Below are positions 1,324-15,479 of a stretch of DNA of 15,888 bases, one piece after another. Position numbers and translations under genes: made by a program. Below the pieces are notes generated by a model. The model was given only the letters and a program-made list of their open reading frames with translations, searched no databases and had not been told where the DNA came from. Source of the stretch: Candidatus Coprovivens sp. GTDB lineage: Bacteria; Bacillota_I; Bacilli_A; RF39; UBA660. The stretch covers positions 1-15,888 of the forward strand of contig JBJFGS010000022.1 in the NCBI GenBank assembly GCA_051892935.1, written 5' to 3'. Numbering within the stretch: the stretch's first letter is position 1; each line of letters opens with the position of its first letter.

Positions 1324-2232
1324 ATGAAGGAAAATAGTATGACAGCTTTAGTAAGTTGCTTTGCAAGATGTTATCACTACAAAAATTACAAATATCGAAT
1401 TTTTAGTGATAACATTGCAGAAAAAATATTAAGTGAGGAGGAGTATAAAACAATTGCCAATAATATGACAAACGGAATTAATTTTTTTAATCCCAATTTT
1501 AAAGGTACTAAAGAAGATGCATTAAGATGGATAGTAGATAACCAACTATCACCATCAGTTTTAGGAAGAAGCATATTCTGTGAAAAATCATTATCAACAG
1601 CTTATAAAATTGGTTGTAGAGAATACTTAATATTTGCATCAGGTTACGATACATTTGCATATCGTAATAATCTTCCTAATTTAAAAGTATATGAAATAGA
1701 TAAAAAAGAAATGATCGAAGATAAAATAAAAAGACTAGAAGATAATGAAATCGACCATTCAAAAGTCGAATTTATCAAATGTGATTTTTCAAAAGATAAA
1801 TGGATTAATAATATAGTTAATAGTAGTTATAATCAACAAAAAACATCTTTTTGCAGTTTATTAGGAATAAGCTATTATTTAACCAAACAAGACTTTTCTT
1901 CTATGATAAAACATATATCTAATATAATAAGTAGTGGTAGTACTATAATATTTGATTATCCTACTTATGATGATAGCAAAGAAACTAAAACTAATGAACA
2001 ATTAGCAAAAAAAGCCAACGAACAAATGAAATCAAAATATACTTATGAAGAAATAGAAAGATTATTATCCCAAAATAATTTATTAATTTATGAACATTTA
2101 GATAACAATGAAATGACTAATAATTATTTTGAAAAATATAATATATTGAATCCTTCAAACAAAATAATTGCACCTAAAGGAGTAAATTATTGTTTAGCTG
2201 TAAAAAAAATAAACAAAAATAATACTAACTAA
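1324..2232 (+). CDS. class I SAM-dependent methyltransferase (leucine carboxyl methyltransferase / YktD-like)
   Basis: SMTALVSCFARCYH, IFSDNIA, YLIFASGYDTFAYR (motif I), VYEID, CDF, LLGISYYL, IIFDY. SD GAGGTG. Confidence 0.85.
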   Translation: MKENSMTALVSCFARCYHYKNYKYRIFSDNIAEKILSEEEYKTIANNMTNGINFFNPNFKGTKEDALRWIVDNQLSPSVLGRSIFCEKSLSTAYKIGCREYLIFASGYDTFAYRNNLPNLKVYEIDKKEMIEDKIKRLEDNEIDHSKVEFIKCDFSKDKWINNIVNSSYNQQKTSFCSLLGISYYLTKQDFSSMIKHISNIISSGSTIIFDYPTYDDSKETKTNEQLAKKANEQMKSKYTYEEIERLLSQNNLLIYEHLDNNEMTNNYFEKYNILNPSNKIIAPKGVNYCLAVKKINKNNTN

Positions 2233-2981: not shown

Positions 2982-4745
2982 ATGCCAGAACTAAAAGAAG
3001 AATTAATAAAAGAATTCCCATATTTTGAAAAACTACTATCTTCAGCAATACCTGTAACAGAAGAATTATTTAATTTCTATAAAAATGACACCAAAATACA
3101 AGTAGATAATAGTAATATTAGTGTTCAATTATTAAAAGATATCATTTCTAATGAATACTATTATGAAATGGCTAAAAAATTATTCAGAGATGAAATGGAA
3201 GATTTAAATATATATTTAATAAAATATGGTGATATTTTTGGTAGTATTCAATTATCTAAATCTAGCATTATAGAAGGTTTAGACACCATAATGAATCAAG
3301 GACTAAGTTCATTTGATGAACTTGCATATCGTCGATATGATGAATTAAAACAGAGTATTTCCTATGATAGATTTCTCGAAAAGAATAGAAATAATAATTA
3401 TAATATAACCATTGAAGAAACTAAGTATTCAATTCCTATTGAACAAATTATAAGTTTTCTAAATCTATCAAACGAAGAATTTGATCAAATTTGTAAATCA
3501 AATGAAATAAAAGAAATAAATGGTATACCTAAAGAACACTTTGTTTATGCAATTACTAAATTTTTTAAAGAATATAAACTATTAAAAAGCTTTCAGTTTC
3601 CGCAATCAATAATAGATAAAATAAATGCGATAGATTCACTTCAAAAATTAGATATTGAAGCAGTTGATAAAATAACAATTATATCCGATCCAAATATAGA
3701 TAAAATAGAAGTAAATGAAGAACTGAAAAATACTATTTTAGAAAACCTTCCAACAGATGCTTCTGAATTAGAAAAAGCTATATTTATATACATAAAAATG
3801 TGCAAATTATTAACATATGATGATGAGTTCTATGCCGTTAATCAAATGGGTCAAGTAGCAAGAATTCATGAAAACATAAATCATGTTAAAGAAATAACTC
3901 CAACTAATAATAAAGTTGTATGTTATGAATTTAATGCTATATATGGAAAAACGCTTCAAGAAATTGGCTTAACGTTTTCAACCGATCAAGCTCTTATAAA
4001 TGGTTTTGGTGGCGGACATGCAAACTTGAAATTTCGTAGTAGCAAATTCTTAGTAGCAGCTGACTCAGTTACTTCAATTCTTCTTGGAGATATTACTAAA
4101 GCTAAATTAAATCAACCATTAGTAGGTTTAAAATGTGTTAATAAAAATCAACAAACACAACAAGAATTTAATAATGCTTTAACTAAAATGTATAATTTAA
4201 TAATTAATAAAGAAAACGAAAAAAGTGTAGAAACTTCTCCATCTACTGAAGTTACAATACCACAAGAAACACTACCAGAAGAACAAGTACCAACAGAAAG
4301 TTTTGCTGAAACAGTAGCTAAGTATAAAAGAACAACTAAACAGATAGTACACATAAGTCTAGCAGAAAAACTTGATATTCTAATGCAAAAAGTAAATGAT
4401 TCAAAACTAGTTGGAATAGATTCATTATCATATATTCTTCATCTAAGAAAAGTATTATTTACTGAAGAAGAAAGAAAAGAAAACATAAACATTTCGGTAA
4501 TAAGAGACAATGAGCTACTTGAACAAACTCAAAGTGCCACAGCTAGTGCTATAATAGCAATCAATGAATCAAGTTTTACCAATAATCCAGAATCTACTAT
4601 ATATTATGTATATCATCCTAAAATATCTTTTCAAAAAATTACTCTTGAAGAATTAAAAAACAAATTTAGTAATGGAACATATGATTATATACAAAAGAAG
4701 GATCCTGAAATACCAGGAATATCCCAAGGAGGTATGAAAAAATGA
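2982..4745 (+). CDS. large hypothetical protein with a putative transglutaminase-like (Cys-His-Asp) domain
   Basis: 587-aa ORF. SELEKAIFIYIKMCKLLTYD helix, then VVC314YEF, GGH346A and AAD361S. No signal peptide seen. Confidence 0.65.
   Translation: MPELKEELIKEFPYFEKLLSSAIPVTEELFNFYKNDTKIQVDNSNISVQLLKDIISNEYYYEMAKKLFRDEMEDLNIYLIKYGDIFGSIQLSKSSIIEGLDTIMNQGLSSFDELAYRRYDELKQSISYDRFLEKNRNNNYNITIEETKYSIPIEQIISFLNLSNEEFDQICKSNEIKEINGIPKEHFVYAITKFFKEYKLLKSFQFPQSIIDKINAIDSLQKLDIEAVDKITIISDPNIDKIEVNEELKNTILENLPTDASELEKAIFIYIKMCKLLTYDDEFYAVNQMGQVARIHENINHVKEITPTNNKVVCYEFNAIYGKTLQEIGLTFSTDQALINGFGGGHANLKFRSSKFLVAADSVTSILLGDITKAKLNQPLVGLKCVNKNQQTQQEFNNALTKMYNLIINKENEKSVETSPSTEVTIPQETLPEEQVPTESFAETVAKYKRTTKQIVHISLAEKLDILMQKVNDSKLVGIDSLSYILHLRKVLFTEEERKENINISVIRDNELLEQTQSATASAIIAINESSFTNNPESTIYYVYHPKISFQKITLEELKNKFSNGTYDYIQKKDPEIPGISQGGMKK
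4258..4302 (+). repeat. imperfect 15-nt tandem repeat (x3) encoding a P/E/T-rich linker
   Basis: TACCACAAGAAACAC / TACCAGAAGAACAAG / TACCAACAGAAAGTT starting at 4258, 4273 and 4288. Confidence 0.55.
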
Positions 4746-4978
4746 TAGAAATACTAAAAGCAATAAACTATCGAATAATATCTGGTCATAAAGACAATCC
4801 AGAAGAATTACAAAAACAAGAATTAATAAAAAAGATTCTTTCTGAAAAAGATTGCTTTTTAAAAATCGATATAACAACTGCATATCAAATATTAGAAGAT
4901 TTAAAAATACCACAAGATAAAATGAGAAATGTATATTTAGAACTAATAAATCCAGAGAAAGAAGGACTATTTCAATAG
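4742..4978 (+). CDS. 78-aa hypothetical protein, translationally coupled to the upstream gene
   Basis: ATGA start/stop overlap, strong SD AAGGAGGT inside the upstream ORF, terminator after it. Confidence 0.8.
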   Translation: MIEILKAINYRIISGHKDNPEELQKQELIKKILSEKDCFLKIDITTAYQILEDLKIPQDKMRNVYLELINPEKEGLFQ

Positions 4979-4988
4979 TTCTTTTTTT
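4962..4988 (+). terminator. intrinsic terminator
   Basis: AAGGACTAT-ttca-ATAGTTCTT followed by a T tract. Confidence 0.65.
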
Positions 4989-5002
4989 ATATTTTTTTAA
5001 AA

Positions 5003-5019
5003 TTCGACAAAATTCGACA
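5003..5019. promoter_or_regulatory. two tandem Spo0A (0A) boxes
   Basis: TTCGACA at 5003-5009 and 5013-5019, equal to TGTCGAA on the minus strand, with a 10-bp period. Confidence 0.6.
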
Positions 5020-5066
5020 CGACCATATGTAATAATATTATTGTGCTAAACTAAAGGAGGATACAT

Positions 5067-5276
5067 ATGGAAAGTAAAGTAAAGTGGTTTAATAATGAAA
5101 AAGGATACGGATTTATAGAATATAAAGAAAATGAAGATATTTTCGTTCATTATTCTCAAATTCTACAAGATGGTTATAAAAGTCTTAATCAAGGAGATAA
5201 TGTTTACTTCGATTTAATAGAAACAGAAAAAGGCTTCCAAGCCAAAAATGTTCAAGCTGTAAGAAATATTATTTAA
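5067..5276 (+). CDS. csp: cold-shock protein (CspA family)
   Basis: KVKWFNNEKGYGFI (RNP1), DIFVHYS (RNP2), GYKSL, KGFQAKNV. SD AAAGGAGG. Confidence 0.97.
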   Translation: MESKVKWFNNEKGYGFIEYKENEDIFVHYSQILQDGYKSLNQGDNVYFDLIETEKGFQAKNVQAVRNII

Positions 5277-5400
5277 TTAATTATTAACCATTATCAATTG
5301 ATTTATTAGTATTTAAAAAACATTATTTTATGTTTAGCACAAAGAAAATATTAAGTAAATCAAAGTAATATAGTAATTAACAATATAATATTAATATATA

Positions 5401-5426
5401 AGGAACTATCTATAATAGTTCTTTTT
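5401..5426 (+). terminator. intrinsic terminator after csp
   Basis: GAACTAT-ctata-ATAGTTC-TTTTT. Confidence 0.6.
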
Positions 5427-5445
5427 ACTTTAATTAAAATTATTT

Positions 5446-5474
5446 TTGACAAAATAAATATTTAGTATTATGAT
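5446..5474 (+). promoter_or_regulatory. sigmaA promoter of the hisS leader
   Basis: TTGACA-17 nt-TATGAT. Confidence 0.85.
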
Positions 5475-5497
5475 AAAGCCATGAAAGGGAGATTAAT

Positions 5498-5560
5498 ATG
5501 ATAAAACTATTTAATTCATTACATCATCATAATAATCTGCACTTGTTAATACGACATTAA
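5498..5560 (+). CDS. histidine-rich attenuator leader peptide MIKLFNSLHHHNNLHLLIRH
   Basis: SD GAAAGGGAG. 5 of 20 codons are His, including CAT-CAT-CAT. Lies between the promoter and a terminator upstream of hisS. Confidence 0.85.
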   Translation: MIKLFNSLHHHNNLHLLIRH

Positions 5561-5612
5561 TAGTTGTAGTACAAGTGCTATTTGTGGTGCTTGTATTTAG
5601 TTAATATATATA

Positions 5613-5647
5613 AAAGAACTATACGAGGACCACTTGTATAGTTTTTT
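5613..5647 (+). terminator. attenuator terminator of the hisS leader
   Basis: AAAGAACTATACGAG-gacca-CTTGTATAGTTTTTT, ending 24 nt before the hisS ATG. Confidence 0.85.
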
Positions 5648-5671
5648 ATTTTAATAGAAAGAGGAATTATT

Positions 5672-6967
5672 ATGATTATACAAAATGTAAAAGGTGGTTA
5701 TGATTTTTTACCAAAAGAACAAAAAATTAGAAATTATATAAATGAAATATTAAAAAATACTTTTGAAGAATATGGTTATCTACCGATAGAAACACCTATA
5801 TTATGTTACTTTGATATGTTAGCTGGAAAATATGATGAATCAAACGATATTTTAAATGAGATATATAAATTAAAAGATCAAGGGAATCGAAATCTTGGTC
5901 TTCGTTATGACCTAACAGTTCCATTTGCTAAATTTATTGCCCTTAACAAAAATGAACTTAAACTACCATTTAAACGTTATGAGATAAATAAAGTATTTAG
6001 AGATGGCCCAGTAAAAGTAGGTCGTGATCGTGAGTTTACTCAATGTGATGTTGATGTAGTAGGAATTTCCAATCAAATGATAGAAGCTGAACTATTAAGT
6101 TTATATGTTAACGCTTTCTCAAAGCTTAACATAGAAATTAATATCAAATATAATAGTCGTAACTTAATGCGAGGTTTAATACTAGAAACAGGAGTAACAG
6201 AGGAATTAGTATCAAGTACAATAACAATCATTGATAAAATAGATAAACTAAGTACTGAAGAATTAACAACCAATCTTATAGAAATAGGACTTAATAAAAA
6301 ACAAATAGACTTACTACTAGAATATTTCAAACTACCTTTAGAAGAACTAAATAAACTATTCAAAGAAACAAATAACGAAGATATTAAAATAGGTTTAGAA
6401 GAACTAAATAATTTAGAAGAATATATTGAAAAAATGAACTTACGTGAATATTGTAATTTCACATCATCACTAGCTCGCGGTCAAGATTACTATACGGGTA
6501 ATGTATTTGAAGTATACGAAAAGAATGGTTTACTATCAGGTGCTATTGGTGGTGGAGGTCGCTATGATAAAATGATTACTGAATTCATCGATGACGGAGA
6601 AATATATCCAGCAGTAGGTATCAGTTTCGGTCTAACTTCTATCTTCGAATTACTAAAAAATCTAGAAGACTTTAAAGATTCATTTCCTGTTGATATCTAT
6701 ATAATACCTATGGACACAAACATTGAAAGCTTAAATCTTGCAAATGAACTTCGCAAATTAAATATTAAAGTAGACATTGAAATGAACAACAAAAAACTAA
6801 AGAAAAGTTTAGACTTCTGTAACAAAGAAAATATTCCATATGTAATTATTCTTGGTGAAGATGAAATAACAAATCAAGAATTTAAACTAAAAGATATGAT
6901 AAACAAAAAAGAATATAATATCCCGATAGATAAACTATCAATAATAAAAGAAATCATAAAAAAATAA
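5672..6967 (+). CDS. hisS: histidine--tRNA ligase
   Basis: KGGYDFLP, GLRYDLTVP, VFRDGP..GRDREFTQCDVD (motif 2), LARGQDYYTG, GGGGRYD, AVGISFG (motif 3). The C-terminal anticodon domain is present, so it is not HisZ. Confidence 0.96.
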   Translation: MIIQNVKGGYDFLPKEQKIRNYINEILKNTFEEYGYLPIETPILCYFDMLAGKYDESNDILNEIYKLKDQGNRNLGLRYDLTVPFAKFIALNKNELKLPFKRYEINKVFRDGPVKVGRDREFTQCDVDVVGISNQMIEAELLSLYVNAFSKLNIEINIKYNSRNLMRGLILETGVTEELVSSTITIIDKIDKLSTEELTTNLIEIGLNKKQIDLLLEYFKLPLEELNKLFKETNNEDIKIGLEELNNLEEYIEKMNLREYCNFTSSLARGQDYYTGNVFEVYEKNGLLSGAIGGGGRYDKMITEFIDDGEIYPAVGISFGLTSIFELLKNLEDFKDSFPVDIYIIPMDTNIESLNLANELRKLNIKVDIEMNNKKLKKSLDFCNKENIPYVIILGEDEITNQEFKLKDMINKKEYNIPIDKLSIIKEIIKK

Positions 6968-7026
6968 AATTTATATCCCACTTTTATAATTACTTTGATA
7001 ATATATATAACTAAGGAGGTATTAAT

Positions 7027-7626
7027 ATGACAAAAATATCAAATGCATTACTTATGTTACAATATCTCCAATCAGGAAGAAAATACTCAGTAAAAGAACT
7101 ATCTGAAAAATTAGAAGTATCAGAACGTCAAGTTCGTTGTTACAAAGAAGATTTAGAAAAAGCAGGAATTTATATTGATACTATAATGGGACCATATGGT
7201 GGATATGTTCTGAATCAATCAATAAGAATGCCAATAAGAAAGTTTAAAAAGCAAGACTATGAATTACTTGATAAATATATTGATTCAGAACAAGACGAAC
7301 TAACAAAAGAACAATTAACTATATTACAAGATAAAATAAAAGGTGTTTACGCTGGCTCTAAAGCCGAATCCAAAGAACTTAATCTAAAAGAAGAAACCCT
7401 TACAAAATATAATCTTCTTACAAGAGCAATCAAAGAAAGAAGAAAAGTATTTATCAGATATTATTCTTATAATAAAGGAGAAAATGATCGAACAATCTGC
7501 CCGGCTGAAATGTTTCTCTTTCAAGATGGATGGTATGTTGCAGCTTTCTGTTTACTAAAAAATGATATTAGACACTTTGAATTAAAAAGAATAATAAAAA
7601 TAGAATTATTAGAAGAATACTTTTAA
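7027..7626 (+). CDS. WYL-domain transcriptional regulator (wHTH + WYL, YafY-like, short form)
   Basis: N-terminal HTH (SVKELSEKLEVSERQVRCYKEDLEKAG...GPYGGY) and C-terminal WYL (RTICP...GWYVAAFCLLKNDIRHFELKRI). SD AAGGAGGT. Confidence 0.92.
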   Translation: MTKISNALLMLQYLQSGRKYSVKELSEKLEVSERQVRCYKEDLEKAGIYIDTIMGPYGGYVLNQSIRMPIRKFKKQDYELLDKYIDSEQDELTKEQLTILQDKIKGVYAGSKAESKELNLKEETLTKYNLLTRAIKERRKVFIRYYSYNKGENDRTICPAEMFLFQDGWYVAAFCLLKNDIRHFELKRIIKIELLEEYF

Positions 7627-7684
7627 GTAGACGAAATACTTCCTATACAAGTGCTAAATTGTACTTATGAAAGGAAGTTTTTTT

Positions 7685-8599
7685 ATGAAAGAAACAATGA
7701 ATGATAACTTTAATATGTTAACAAATAGAGTACAAGATTCTCTAAAAGAAACTAATCTCGAAGAAACCAGAAGTATTCTAAGTACTATCAAAGAACCTAC
7801 TATAGTAACTGGAGTAGGAGGTTCTAAAGTAGTAGCAGTCTTCACAAGTAAAATACTCGCTCAAAAAAATGGTATTATTTCAATACCATTAGAACCACGT
7901 GATTTAATATATCACCCAATAACAGGATTTTCTAATATTCTAGCTTGTTCTTATAGCGGAACTAATTACGGAGTAAAAACGACTTTCCAAAACAATCTAA
8001 ATAAATATCTTTTATCTAGTACAAAAGTAGAAGGAATAGCATCTATCCAATACAAGACATCTCTACCTAAAGAACATAGTTTTATATCTTTAGCAGCTAC
8101 TCTAATACCTATGACTATTATGTTAGATTACTACTTAGATGGTAATACTAAAATAGTTGATGAAATATTTAAACAAACACCACCTCAAATAGAAGATAAT
8201 TCCGTATTTGAAATAATGTCTGGATATGATACATCAACAGCTCATACATACTTAGAATCAACAATGATAGAAGCAGGTTTATCTATTCCGATAGTACATG
8301 ATAAATATAACTATTGTCATGGCCGAAGTACAACAAGTTATCATAATAATCATTCTCTAATATATTTTGATAAAGATACCGAACTAGATCAAATTATGTT
8401 AGAAGAACTACAAAAATATTATAATAAAGTAATTAGATTAAAAACTAAATATAAAGATCCAATAATAGATGAATACTACCTAACATTTATATCCATGTTA
8501 TTAACTAAACAATTAGCACAAAAAAAAGATATAGACTTAAGTATTGTAGATTATTCACCAGTAGTAAAAAAAATATACACATACAAAGGAGGTATGTAG
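7685..8599 (+). CDS. SIS (phosphosugar isomerase/binding) domain protein
   Basis: VTGVGGS and CSYSGTN phosphosugar-binding loops, EHSFISLAAT, second lobe LESTMIEAG...DKYNYCHGR. SD AAGGAAG favours ATG 7685. Confidence 0.7.
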   Translation: MKETMNDNFNMLTNRVQDSLKETNLEETRSILSTIKEPTIVTGVGGSKVVAVFTSKILAQKNGIISIPLEPRDLIYHPITGFSNILACSYSGTNYGVKTTFQNNLNKYLLSSTKVEGIASIQYKTSLPKEHSFISLAATLIPMTIMLDYYLDGNTKIVDEIFKQTPPQIEDNSVFEIMSGYDTSTAHTYLESTMIEAGLSIPIVHDKYNYCHGRSTTSYHNNHSLIYFDKDTELDQIMLEELQKYYNKVIRLKTKYKDPIIDEYYLTFISMLLTKQLAQKKDIDLSIVDYSPVVKKIYTYKGGM

Positions 8600-9212: not shown

Positions 9213-10055
9213 TTATCTAAATCTTTTATTAATCCAGTCTTTAATTCTTTTACTTAGACTTTTTGATTTATCAACAGCTATATTATTAGATTGTTCAGTA
9301 TCAATCACTAAATTATTATCTTTTTCTAATTCAGGAAGTATTTTAAAACTAATGACCAAATATTTACCATCATCAGAAACAAATCTCATTCTTTCAAAAC
9401 TATTACCAAAGAATTCGTTATGTTCTAAATTATCATTGATTAAAATGCTTTCACTAGCTTGAATTAACCCTTGTGAAAATCTTTCTCTTTTTGAATCTAA
9501 TGAAGTGCCATCAATTCTATATATTAATACTTGTAATGGATTAAGACCTTGCTGAGCTACATAAGGACATCCTTCTTTTTCTGCAACTTTAAAACCTTCA
9601 AAATCTGGAACAATAGGAAAAGGCATAATTCTATGACCTTGCTTCGTCCATAATATTTCAGCTGTAGAATGCATCTTAAATTCCAATCTATGATATCTAG
9701 TTAATAAATCTTCATTTTTATCTCTTTCTTGATCAGACATAGCATTCCATTTAACACCAATAGAGTTCATCTCATCAGCAATCATTTGTCCATCAGCGAT
9801 TATTTCTTCTTCACTCATATTTTTATAATACCTAAAATCTGGAATCCAATCACAGCTTTCAAAAAAATCAACGGTGCTAGGTTCAGTAAACTCCGCAAAT
9901 TCAAATCTATTATCATCAGTAACAATAAATACTTTACTAAACACCTTATCCATAACTTCAGCTGGAATCAAACTATCAAGCTGCATCAACATCATAACAT
10001 CATTAAGTTGTACATATACTTTTTTATTACCATTCTCAATATTAACTATTTTCAT
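9213..10055 (-). CDS. hypothetical protein (280 aa), acidic, with a basic amphipathic C-terminal helix
   Basis: Long ORF. SD AAGGGGAG supports the start MKIVNIENG at 10055 rather than 10106. No family recognised. Confidence 0.8.
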   Translation of the reverse strand: MKIVNIENGNKKVYVQLNDVMMLMQLDSLIPAEVMDKVFSKVFIVTDDNRFEFAEFTEPSTVDFFESCDWIPDFRYYKNMSEEEIIADGQMIADEMNSIGVKWNAMSDQERDKNEDLLTRYHRLEFKMHSTAEILWTKQGHRIMPFPIVPDFEGFKVAEKEGCPYVAQQGLNPLQVLIYRIDGTSLDSKRERFSQGLIQASESILINDNLEHNEFFGNSFERMRFVSDDGKYLVISFKILPELEKDNNLVIDTEQSNNIAVDKSKSLSKRIKDWINKRFR

Positions 10056-10126
10056 AAACTTCTCCCCTTGTAAAAAGTATAATACCATAAAAAAATTAAT
10101 AAACAACTTTTTTCATATAATTTTAT

Positions 10127-10489
10127 ATGAATAATATTACATCAAAAATTAATGAATTAGAATTTGAAAAAATATTATGGCTAATATTTATCTTTATATC
10201 TGCCTTAAATATATATGGTGATAACATTGAAGAACTATTTCTAATAAATAACGATAAACAATTAGAAGATAATGTCAAAAAAATCTTTACACTTACCGTC
10301 TTCATTTCTTTATTAATATATTTATACTTTGGATATCGAAATTATCGATATACCCAAAATAAAGTAGGAGAAGATTATACATTATCATGTATTCGTTTTG
10401 CAGGAAGTATACTAATTATAGTAGGAACTTTACTCATTTTGTATTATAATATTAAGGAACAAGAACCAGTTGGAACACCAACTATTTAG
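10127..10489 (+). CDS. small membrane protein (about 3 TM helices), function unknown
   Basis: Three hydrophobic stretches. No SD seen; TATAAT ends 5 nt before the ATG, so it may be leaderless. Confidence 0.75.
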   Translation: MNNITSKINELEFEKILWLIFIFISALNIYGDNIEELFLINNDKQLEDNVKKIFTLTVFISLLIYLYFGYRNYRYTQNKVGEDYTLSCIRFAGSILIIVGTLLILYYNIKEQEPVGTPTI

Positions 10490-14561: not shown

Positions 14562-15479
14562 ATGAAGTTAAAATATCGAAACATAACAGTTCCATTAATG
14601 GTAAGCGATAATAAAAAGCCATTTATTTATTATGTCTATAATAATAAGGAATATAACGATTTTAATGAATTATTTAATGATTTTATAGGAACATATCTTA
14701 CATATCATTTTGAAATAAAAGGAAAAGAAAAAGAAGTTCACAACTTAAAAGAAGTAGTAGAAGCCTTAGTAAAAAATAAAGATACTTTTAAAATACCTAA
14801 GAAGTATATAGAAGAATATAGTGAAGAAGAATATAAATATATTTTTAATTTACAAAAGAAATTATTAAACAATAAATTAAAACTAGAATTAGAAAAAGAT
14901 CCCGAATTTAAATACAAAGTAAAAGATTTTAATACTAAAAAATTATATAATTTTTATAAAGATACATATGATAAATATCAAAATGTCAAAATACCTAAAA
15001 AGGTTCATTCAGATATCTATAATATAGATTATTTCGTTATAGCAGGTCGTGCTTATGATAGTATATTTAACGCTTTAGAAGAAGTATATCAAACAGATTT
15101 ATACTATCAATTTGGTGGTACTAAAAACCCTAATAATCGTACCCATTTTCATGCCCATAATTTCGAAGAACTTATTGGCATGGTATTCACAAATAACCAA
15201 TCTTTTAAAATCCATGTTTTTCAAAGACAATTCTATAGCAAACAAGAACTAGAATTTCTATCTAAATTATCAGATAAACTAAAAAAGATGAATTTTCATA
15301 GCCCAGAAAGAAAAAATAATATTGATGTTGAAGAATATTTCTATCTAAAAGACAATAAAAAACTTTTTAAACTATTATTCCACAATATAAAATACTATAT
15401 ATCTGATAAACAATATAATAAAGAAGTACTAAAAGCTCATAAAATAGGTCCTTTGCCAAATAATGTTGGTACACAATAA
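14562..15479 (+). CDS. hypothetical protein built from two copies of a ~100-aa domain; last 10 codons are IS-derived
   Basis: SD AAGGTGAT. Residues 4-101 align by eye with 138-240. The C-terminal GPLPNNVGTQ is read from the ISL3 end. Confidence 0.8.
   Translation: MKLKYRNITVPLMVSDNKKPFIYYVYNNKEYNDFNELFNDFIGTYLTYHFEIKGKEKEVHNLKEVVEALVKNKDTFKIPKKYIEEYSEEEYKYIFNLQKKLLNNKLKLELEKDPEFKYKVKDFNTKKLYNFYKDTYDKYQNVKIPKKVHSDIYNIDYFVIAGRAYDSIFNALEEVYQTDLYYQFGGTKNPNNRTHFHAHNFEELIGMVFTNNQSFKIHVFQRQFYSKQELEFLSKLSDKLKKMNFHSPERKNNIDVEEYFYLKDNKKLFKLLFHNIKYYISDKQYNKEVLKAHKIGPLPNNVGTQ

Follow-up and report, generated by a model that had tools for sequence, protein, structure and literature searches.

Ribosomes translating a short leader peptide control amino acid-related genes by a classical mechanism. 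In the his leader of Salmonella, the RNA alternates between the helices A:B, C:D and E:F and the helices B:C and D:E; leader-peptide attenuation likewise acts on the synthetase genes pheST of Escherichia coli, and leader-peptide control of an auxiliary, antibiotic-resistant synthetase, trpRS1 of Streptomyces coelicolor, is said to have been described by Vecchione and Sello in 2010 (J Bacteriol 192:3565). Here we describe an RNA leader at positions 5446-5671 of a stretch of 15,888 nucleotides (nt) from Candidatus Coprovivens sp. (contig JBJFGS010000022.1; the whole stretch is called the window), which precedes hisS2, a gene for a second histidyl-tRNA synthetase (HisRS). As judged from its sequence, its predicted folds and its relatives, this leader is very probably a ribosome-mediated, that is leader-peptide-dependent, transcription attenuator that senses charged tRNA-His and controls hisS2.

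Elements of this kind are already known. Histidine leader peptides have been predicted upstream of hisS*, the hisS paralogue of Bacillus, and of hisZ, and the part of that report drawn on here has the leader-controlled hisS paralogue coexist with a T-box-controlled hisS (Naville and Gautheret, 2010, Genome Biol 11:R97, PMC2965389). Histidine attenuators have also been predicted upstream of the his operons of the Bacillus cereus group, Peptostreptococcaceae and Erysipelotrichales, and the covariance model RF00514 of the enterobacterial his leader is given as unmatched in Firmicutes in the portion of that paper used here (Ashniev et al., 2022, BMC Genomics, PMC9413887). As far as those portions of the two papers describe them, the published Firmicutes leaders share with the window an open reading frame (ORF) preceded by a Shine-Dalgarno (SD) sequence, 3-5 consecutive His codons, an attenuator hairpin, an alternative antiterminator and a terminator, and the pairing of a T-box-controlled hisS with a leader-controlled paralogue is that of Bacillus hisS*. 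Inspection by eye of Additional file 6 of Ashniev et al. (2022) places the start of the first hairpin arm about 10 nt downstream of the final His codon in the leaders of B. cereus and C. difficile; the hairpin arms of the Peptostreptococcaceae leaders in that paper resemble, by eye only, the S2 and S3 arms described below. Unlike the published leaders, the present one belongs to a lineage of uncultured small-genome gut Bacilli and has hisS2 as its target, in a genome that yielded neither hisG nor hisD.

With the enterobacterial hisL leader (RF00514) the window leader shares the presumed sensing of charged tRNA-His by a ribosome on tandem His codons as well as the alternating helices, its segments S1-S5 corresponding to the Salmonella segments B-F. 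In contrast to hisL, it carries a run of three His codons and not seven, does not match RF00514, controls a synthetase paralogue instead of a biosynthetic operon and lacks segment A, so that the stalled ribosome would mask nothing and the untranslated RNA would read through rather than super-attenuate. As with trpRS1 and pheST, a synthetase gene, auxiliary or second, would be induced through a leader peptide upon shortage of the cognate charged tRNA, although amino acid and phylum differ from those of trpRS1 and HisRS2 is not indicated as a resistance enzyme. A T-box leader (RF00230) also translates a shortage of charged tRNA into antitermination upstream of a synthetase gene, but by direct binding of the tRNA, whereas in the window a translating ribosome would be the sensor. 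New are the lineage, the occurrence of three- and five-segment variants, a candidate start-codon helix and a regulon that includes hisG and M20 peptidases. The leader shows how a probable His auxotroph with a reduced genome may monitor charged tRNA-His, namely by a ribosome-read leader on a spare HisRS gene, and leader-peptide attenuation in Gram-positives, still only predicted, is extended to a large uncultured gut lineage.

Leader anatomy and two mutually exclusive folds

The leader is headed by a sigma-70-type promoter, TTGACA (5446-5451), 17 nt and TATGAT (5469-5474), which matches 11/12 consensus positions and is the joint best-scoring promoter motif of a consensus scan of 4700-7100; as the promoter-like class as such is not enriched in this interval (20 found vs 19.1 expected), the motif alone is weak evidence. 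An SD sequence, GGGAG (5487-5491), lies 6 nt before the ATG at 5498 of the leader ORF MIKLFNSLHHHNNLHLLIRH, which consists of 20 codons and the stop TAA (5498-5560, the stop at 5558-5560, forward strand) and contains five His codons. Three of these form the run CAT CAT CAT (HHH) at 5522-5530, which is conserved in related leaders. Promoter, SD sequence and leader peptide are thus present as the sequence-only reading of this DNA had listed them. A second ATG at 5481 is out of frame with the leader (ATG AAA GGG AGA TTA ATA TGA, 5481-5501) and is probably not the leader start codon; in several relatives it is in frame (MKGKIS-M...), the frame being switched by one-base indels in the SD region.

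Downstream of the His run, five segments can form alternative helices, all on the forward strand and all pairing as that reading had proposed. S1 GCACTTGT (5539-5546) is fully complementary to 5571-5578 within S2 (5569-5580) and begins 11 nt past the first nucleotide of the run's final codon; the loop between S1 and S2 holds an inner hairpin (5550-5568) that contains the stop codon. S2 can alternatively pair with S3 in a hairpin with a 4-nt loop (5569-5596). S3 (5584-5602), besides pairing with S2 via 5585-5596, can pair over 5584-5602 with 5617-5633 of S4 as an antiterminator. S4 (5614-5633) is made up of the terminator 5' arm (5614-5627) and loop and is at the same time the antiterminator 3' strand, and S5 (5633-5652) provides the terminator 3' arm (5633-5646) and a T-tract. 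The S4:S5 terminator, a 14-bp hairpin at 5614-5646 (stem 5613-5647 in the terminator scan) followed by the T-tract, is the only terminator-like site in 4700-7100, where 0.4 are expected in shuffles. The 191-nt leader as a whole folds at -46.0 kcal/mol, compared with -29.2 +/- 3.6 kcal/mol for shuffled sequences (z = -4.66; 0/200 shuffles equal).

Among 40 proximal leaders, that is those directly upstream of the gene, two layouts occur: the five-segment layout in 35, the window included, and a three-segment layout in five, in which the S2:S3 hairpin is followed by a T-run and is itself the terminator, with S1:S2 as the antiterminator. Covariation was assessed in an alignment of the 35 five-segment leaders against shuffled and slid-partner controls, and it supports both mutually exclusive folds, as predicted from the aligned sequences. 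In the ON fold (S1:S2, inner hairpin and S3:S4), 87.0% of the alignment cells are paired and 18/30 pairs change on both sides, with a score of 0.218 vs 0.131 for shuffles, 0/500 of which reach it, and at most 0.118 for slid controls. In the OFF fold (S2:S3 and S4:S5), 89.1% of the cells are paired and 13/26 pairs change on both sides, the score being 0.238 vs 0.145 for shuffles, again with 0/500 reaching it, and at most 0.102 for slid controls. Individual columns covary with both of their alternative partners. Column 91 in S2 (C5578) covaries with column 45 in S1 (GC 28, AU 7) and also with column 100 in S3 (CG 25, UA 7, other 3), and column 144 in S4 covaries with column 107 in S3 (UA 29, CG 3) and with column 160 in S5 (AU 31, GC 4). 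The S1:S2 helix is 96.8% paired over the 35 leaders, with changes on both sides in 4/8 pairs; for the inner hairpin the values are 81.4% of the cells and 6/6 pairs.

Application of the window's S3:S4 register to all 35 leaders was rejected, as it fails in subgroups with a shifted S3 arm. In a register-free duplex test, S3 and the terminator 5' arm are complementary beyond shuffles (at most 5/200 as good) in 26/31 leaders, with a median duplex energy of -14.7 kcal/mol over the 31 leaders tested.

Conservation of the His run, its spacing and the start-codon helix

A wider set of 423 relatives, with record titles such as uncultured Bacilli, 'Tenericutes', Candidatus Coprovivens, Ca. Faecisoma and similar, was searched, and the best 80 orthologous hisS2 loci (57-88% protein identity) were kept. 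The leader was found at 50 of these best 80 loci, at 39 directly upstream of hisS2 and at 11 distally, where leader and terminator lie 0.7-1.9 kb upstream and head an operon that ends in hisS2. Within the window's genus, promoter, SD sequence, His-run ORF and terminator occur within 330 nt of 8/15 hisS2 orthologues, and TTGACAAA of the promoter is invariant in all eight of these leaders; the remaining 7/15 orthologues abut an upstream ORF, and every such abutting same-genus member within the 80-locus set belongs to the distal loci. A promoter-like motif lies at most 80 nt from the leader ATG in 41/51 leaders, an SD-like motif 4-14 nt before the ATG in 38/39 proximal leaders, and an intrinsic terminator between leader and gene in 40/40 proximal leaders, the window included.

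The longest His run among the 51 leaders is three codons in 42, four in 3, two in 3 and an isolated His in 3, so that a run of at least three, whose conservation in orthologous leaders the sequence-only reading had made decisive for its proposal, is retained in 45/51. The peptides diverge outside this run, as in MKKVINMHHHHSNCTC, MKKLNRQHHHNSRTC and MIRNAELKHHHNHLHFLP. S1 is read as C-T-C in seven leaders and elsewhere, in a different frame, as L-H-L, from which it follows that conservation acts on the RNA in the case of S1 and on the codons in the case of the His run; the two further His residues of the window peptide, its fourth and fifth, would thus be by-products of the RNA constraints on S1 and the inner hairpin, with the run as the only codon-level feature.

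The distance between run and S1 is constant. S1 starts +10 or +11 nt from the first nucleotide of the final run codon in 40/40 leaders, 34/40 by pattern and the other six, in which HVH or HHY was picked first, as read from sequence and alignment; S2 lies at +11 to +30 from the stop codon, except for an outlier at +45 in a leader with an extended ORF (L079). On mRNA, the footprint of a bacterial ribosome extends about 12-13 nt beyond the first base in the A site. Given this footprint and the spacing, a ribosome held on the His run would leave S1 just outside, and one at the stop codon would cover S1 and the inner hairpin, but not S2.

The minimum free energy fold also pairs 5490-5502, which comprises the spacer and the leader AUG, with 5526-5538, which comprises the last His codon, two Asn codons and a C. 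Over 49 leaders, this helix P0 has 88% of its cells paired, with changes on both sides in 5/10 pairs and a covariation score of 0.160 vs 0.106 for shuffles, 1/500 of which reach it; a slide control (-3, a register shift within an AT repeat) is still 71% paired. On this moderate support, P0 is a candidate helix by which the leader would sequester its own start codon; it would open under a ribosome on the His run and then close the leader start site.

The leader covariance model matches in 15/151 genera of the family, the window genome included. The 51 aligned leaders with their covariation could seed an RNA family missing from Rfam.

Proposed mechanism and alternatives

Transcription would start from the promoter at 5446-5474 and a ribosome would load on the leader at the SD sequence (5487-5491) and the AUG at 5498. 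When His-tRNA(His) is scarce, the ribosome is proposed to stall with its A site on any of the three CAU codons at 5522-5530, whereby S1, 11 nt past the last CAU and just outside the ribosome, could form its eight Watson-Crick pairs with S2 around the inner hairpin; S3 would then be free to capture the nascent S4, S5 would be left without a partner, and transcription would read through into hisS2. When His-tRNA is plentiful, the ribosome would pass S1 and reach the stop codon, which lies in the loop of S1:S2; S1 would be melted or masked, S2 would fold with S3, and S4 would be left for S5, with termination near 5647-5652. Since there is no first segment as in classical attenuators, the untranslated RNA of the window leader takes the read-through fold; the switch would be ON by default and termination would need leader translation. 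The ribosome-dependent wiring, in essence that of the sequence-only reading, fits the spacing and the covariation in 35-49 related leaders.

Folding under constraints that mimic ribosome positions, a check suggested with the original proposal, gave a terminator 5' arm that was more strongly paired, by more than 0.2, when the ribosome sat on the first His codon than when it had reached the stop, as predicted, in 18/40 leaders; the reverse occurred in 0/40, and the effect is clear in the three-segment class. There, placing the ribosome at the stop lowers the terminator-arm pairing from 0.65-0.81 to 0.06-0.40, and S1:S2 (-13.8 to -15.0 kcal/mol) wins over the terminator (-9.4 to -9.9 kcal/mol) when S1 is free. 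For the window's own leader, the same calculation made no difference. Its helices have energies of -17.5 (S1:S2 with inner hairpin), -17.0 (S3:S4), -12.5 (S2:S3) and -15.7 kcal/mol (S4:S5; -15.0 in the terminator comparison across leaders), owing to which equilibrium folding does not discriminate between the states. Because S1:S2 and the terminator can form side by side, whether S3:S4 or S4:S5 arises would have to be decided kinetically, possibly by whether S3 is free when S4 emerges.

Several observations speak against an attenuator that senses histidine. At equilibrium, the terminator of the window leader has a probability of 0.80-0.95 in every ribosome state and its 5' arm a pairing of 0.78 in all of them, and a step-wise test, noisy as it is, found a clear gain in S3 sequestration upon placing the ribosome at the stop in 6/32 five-segment leaders and the reverse in 1. 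No leader was found in the DNA examined at 30 of the best 80 loci, two of which have less than 300 nt upstream. Three of the 51 leaders have isolated His codons only (HYH or HNH) and another three just HH, and the synonymous variation of the run codons is thin (139 CAT vs 5 CAC over the 51 leaders), a dominance of CAT to be expected from a G+C content of 26.5%. A switch that is ON by default would also leak whenever the leader goes untranslated. Finally, a sequencing-run lookup with 5300-6900 listed no RNA run, and a quarter of the words were found in three DNA or unknown runs of one study.

That default is also what a generic translation-coupled attenuator would build on, in which read-through tracks leader translation, be it through global capacity, initiation or P0, and the His codons are incidental: with the untranslated RNA in the read-through fold, whatever blocks translation of the leader would turn the gene on. 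P0, by pairing the leader AUG with the last His codon, moreover offers a reason at the RNA level to keep CAU, and the His runs are nearly all CAT. However, P0 covers the last CAU only, but 45/51 leaders retain two or three His codons besides it, and CAC stands for CAT at unpaired run positions, with CAT/CAC swaps in the runs of the leaders L038, L069 and L093. The leader family precedes His-related genes (hisS2, hisG and peptidases), and two weak relatives on the same scaffold with Arg-codon runs upstream of M20 (ArgE-like) genes suggest the codon run as the specificity determinant. An attenuator indifferent to histidine is on these grounds improbable.

Control of the hairpins by a trans-acting factor, which may be a protein, an uncharged tRNA as in a T-box, or a small molecule, with the short ORF not being the sensor, would agree with the usual occurrence of T-boxes upstream of Bacillota aminoacyl-tRNA synthetase genes and with the S2:S3 hairpin loop TATTTGTGG, which is highly conserved beyond the needs of pairing. 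However, no Rfam model, including T-box RF00230, whose absence had been predicted, and His_leader RF00514, matches at gathering score in the whole window; nor did either of these two match 5280-5720 in E-value mode with E up to 10, where the five matches obtained are weak and at chance level, the best being a trpB motif with 24.3 bits vs a gathering score of 59. Neither a specifier loop nor a T-box bulge motif was seen in the 191-nt leader. Besides, the ORF is preceded by an SD sequence in 38/39 proximal leaders, and the fixed distance of 10-11 nt between His run and S1 fits a ribosome acting as ruler, which a ligand pocket would not predict, so that a trans-acting factor is judged very unlikely.

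That the ORF lies by chance beside the ordinary terminator of the upstream cold-shock gene and has no regulatory role deserves hardly any credence, for although AT-rich hairpins and short ORFs are common in a genome of 26.5% G+C and the gene at 5067-5276 needs some terminator, the leader has its own conserved promoter, travels with hisS2 or His-related genes to varied genomic surroundings, shows a covariation of both folds that contradicts such a view, and is matched only once in the window genome by the leader model, with nhmmer as with the covariance model.

As an aside to the attenuator preferred here, a scan of the window genome for miniature ORFs with HHH gave 41 ORFs, only three of which have an SD-like motif, the window leader and two others (C10:63875-63955 and C37:14442-14531, both on the minus strand).

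The controlled gene and the housekeeping hisS

The gene hisS2 (5672-6967, forward strand, 431 amino acids (aa)) has its own SD sequence, AGAGGA, at 5660-5665, and its product HisRS2 contains the Pfam domains tRNA-synt_His (3.7e-38) and HGTP_anticodon. It scores 340.4 bits with the HisRS model TIGR00442, above the cut-off of 286.75, and 173 bits with the HisZ model TIGR00443, below the cut-off of 272; the best-scoring model is NF009085 (PRK12420 HisRS subfamily) with 475 bits, under its cut-off of 540, which is reached by 0/401 genomes sampled from the phylum. The blocks LRYDLT, FKRYEI..FR..R.REF.QCD, ARGQDYYTG and GGGGRYD align to solved HisRS, and hisS2 is accordingly annotated as encoding a predicted complete histidyl-tRNA synthetase. 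The window genome has two HisRS genes, HisRS2 being 27% identical to the canonical copy on another contig. The solved chains nearest to HisRS2 are 6nhi (3e-68) and the 'cytoplasmic' HisRS 4g84 (1e-58), and the classical bacterial HisRS chains 1qe0, 1kmm and 1htt are much further away (1e-24 to 1e-27). By these comparisons hisS2 classifies as a second, eukaryote-like HisRS gene and a divergent paralogue, possibly acquired by horizontal transfer.

Within the genus, hisS2 is present in 15/27 genomes, the window genome included, and canonical hisS is also seen in 13 of these 15, the two misses being assemblies of 90% and 65% completeness. In samples of the class and of the phylum (401 genomes each), a paralogue of the hisS2 type occurs in the window's own family only, namely in 5/49 and 3/16 of its genomes, respectively. 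A literature search on the name 'hisS2' returned only an unrelated use of the name.

The canonical hisS (TIGR00442, 479 bits) is followed by asnS in a hisS-asnS operon and directly preceded by a T-box (C25:116499-116681, minus strand, corresponding to L011:1501-1683) that scores 70.7 bits with E = 1.6e-15, below the gathering score of 93; RF00230 has 10 matches in the window genome, this one included, all of them outside the window. Aligned to the Rfam consensus, the specifier of this T-box is AAC (Asn) followed by A, and GAA-N-AAC-A is invariant in 12/12 same-genus T-boxes upstream of canonical hisS. The C of its antiterminator bulge UGGC fits G73 of tRNA-Asn, not C73 of tRNA-His. By its sequence, the operon appears to answer to tRNA-Asn, and the housekeeping hisS seems blind to histidine, which makes a separate His-specific device sensible. 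The original proposal that the attenuator controls hisS in place of a T-box stands insofar as a His leader precedes a HisRS gene that has no T-box, but does not hold in that this gene is the second paralogue and the housekeeping hisS has a T-box, with an Asn specifier. As the T-box reads Asn according to specifier and bulge, the leader would add a His-specific response rather than replace a T-box on a sole hisS.

HisG and HisD domains were not found in the 92%-complete window genome, both models having matched in 14/14 control genomes, and the organism is therefore a probable His auxotroph as judged from its gene content. By the same token, hisS2 is in this genome presumably not a HisZ-type partner of HisG. 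Since the genome seems to be without His biosynthesis and control of the housekeeping hisS lies with a T-box that reads Asn, hisS2 is likely to be the only His-specific boost of charging capacity, which would be the rationale for its control.

Leaders upstream of other genes

Genes behind copies found by the covariance model comprise hisS2 (4 loci), hisG (2 loci, L133 and L142, one of them followed by a HisRS-like gene), M20 peptidase genes (L137, L134 and L080), a PRTase-like/SLOG operon in which the PRTase-like gene is split (L139 and L130), and several genes of unknown kind. By the predicted genes behind it, the leader family outlines a His-starvation regulon in genera of the family.

Two weak matches of the leader model, L143 (around 1500-1640, minus strand) and L144 (around 1500-1600, plus strand), with E values of 6e-7 and 2e-5, carry runs of Arg codons (RRRR; RNRRYR) in the peptides MKFINMVNRRRRVIHLCIR and MKKNIYRNRRYR. 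They share the S1/S2/S3/terminator scaffold and precede M20 (ArgE-like) peptidase genes, and may represent Arg-sensing versions of the His attenuator, which hints at the codon run as an exchangeable specifier on a common scaffold. Natural variants such as these, with three or five segments and with His or Arg runs, are useful for studying how such switches are constructed.

The attenuator of hisS2 will not surprise a specialist, and a putative frameshift in sister species is the more unusual lead. There, the same leader heads an operon of a PRTase-like gene, a SLOG cluster4 gene and then hisS2. The first gene of this operon is split at a conserved site, which consists of an SD-like motif (GGGAGG, GGAG or GGTGG), 3-6 nt and TAT (once TTT) CCC CAT. 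The 0 frame meets a stop 5 codons past the site (11 in one case), and the +1 frame, which upstream of the site is open for 4-11 codons only, continues for 213-227 codons. The split holds in 8/8 operon loci from eight species, with the sites at L032:1273-1281, L033:1279, L042:1282, L044:1309, L046:1327, L068:1259, L040:1279-1287 and L026:309-317, and uninterrupted homologues of 305-316 aa align colinearly with the product expected from a +1 shift (..YP-I(I/V)(S/T)LDKIY). Programmed +1 frameshifting of the prfB type has an anatomy that the sister-operon site looks like, with a 'hungry' His codon CAU in the A site as deduced from the aligned loci.

Taken jointly, the leader could be the master switch of an undescribed His-starvation regulon (hisS2, hisG, M20 peptidases and PRTase-like/SLOG genes) in uncultured small-genome gut Bacilli, with a default-ON, translation-dependent terminator, a first arm that abuts the stalled ribosome and a start codon sequestered by P0; it would exist because hisS is wired to an Asn T-box, and sister species would read a shortage of tRNA-His twice, by termination and by the frame at CCC-CAU, the window genome having the first layer only. 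This extended view is tentative and, as a whole, rather doubtful. The SLOG gene was not found in the window genome with the sister-operon query, and the ORF of 310 aa at 7667-8599 of the window is unrelated to the PRTase-like gene of the sister operon.

Neighbouring genes

Five ORFs of the window, of 120-587 aa, are without a Pfam family (2982-4745, 7667-8599, 9213-10106 on the minus strand, 10127-10489 and 14562-15479), and those at 2982-4745 and 7667-8599 have no NCBIfam match either. The gene directly upstream of the leader is cold-shock-like (5067-5276), and directly downstream of hisS2 lies a WYL/HTH regulator gene (7027-7626).

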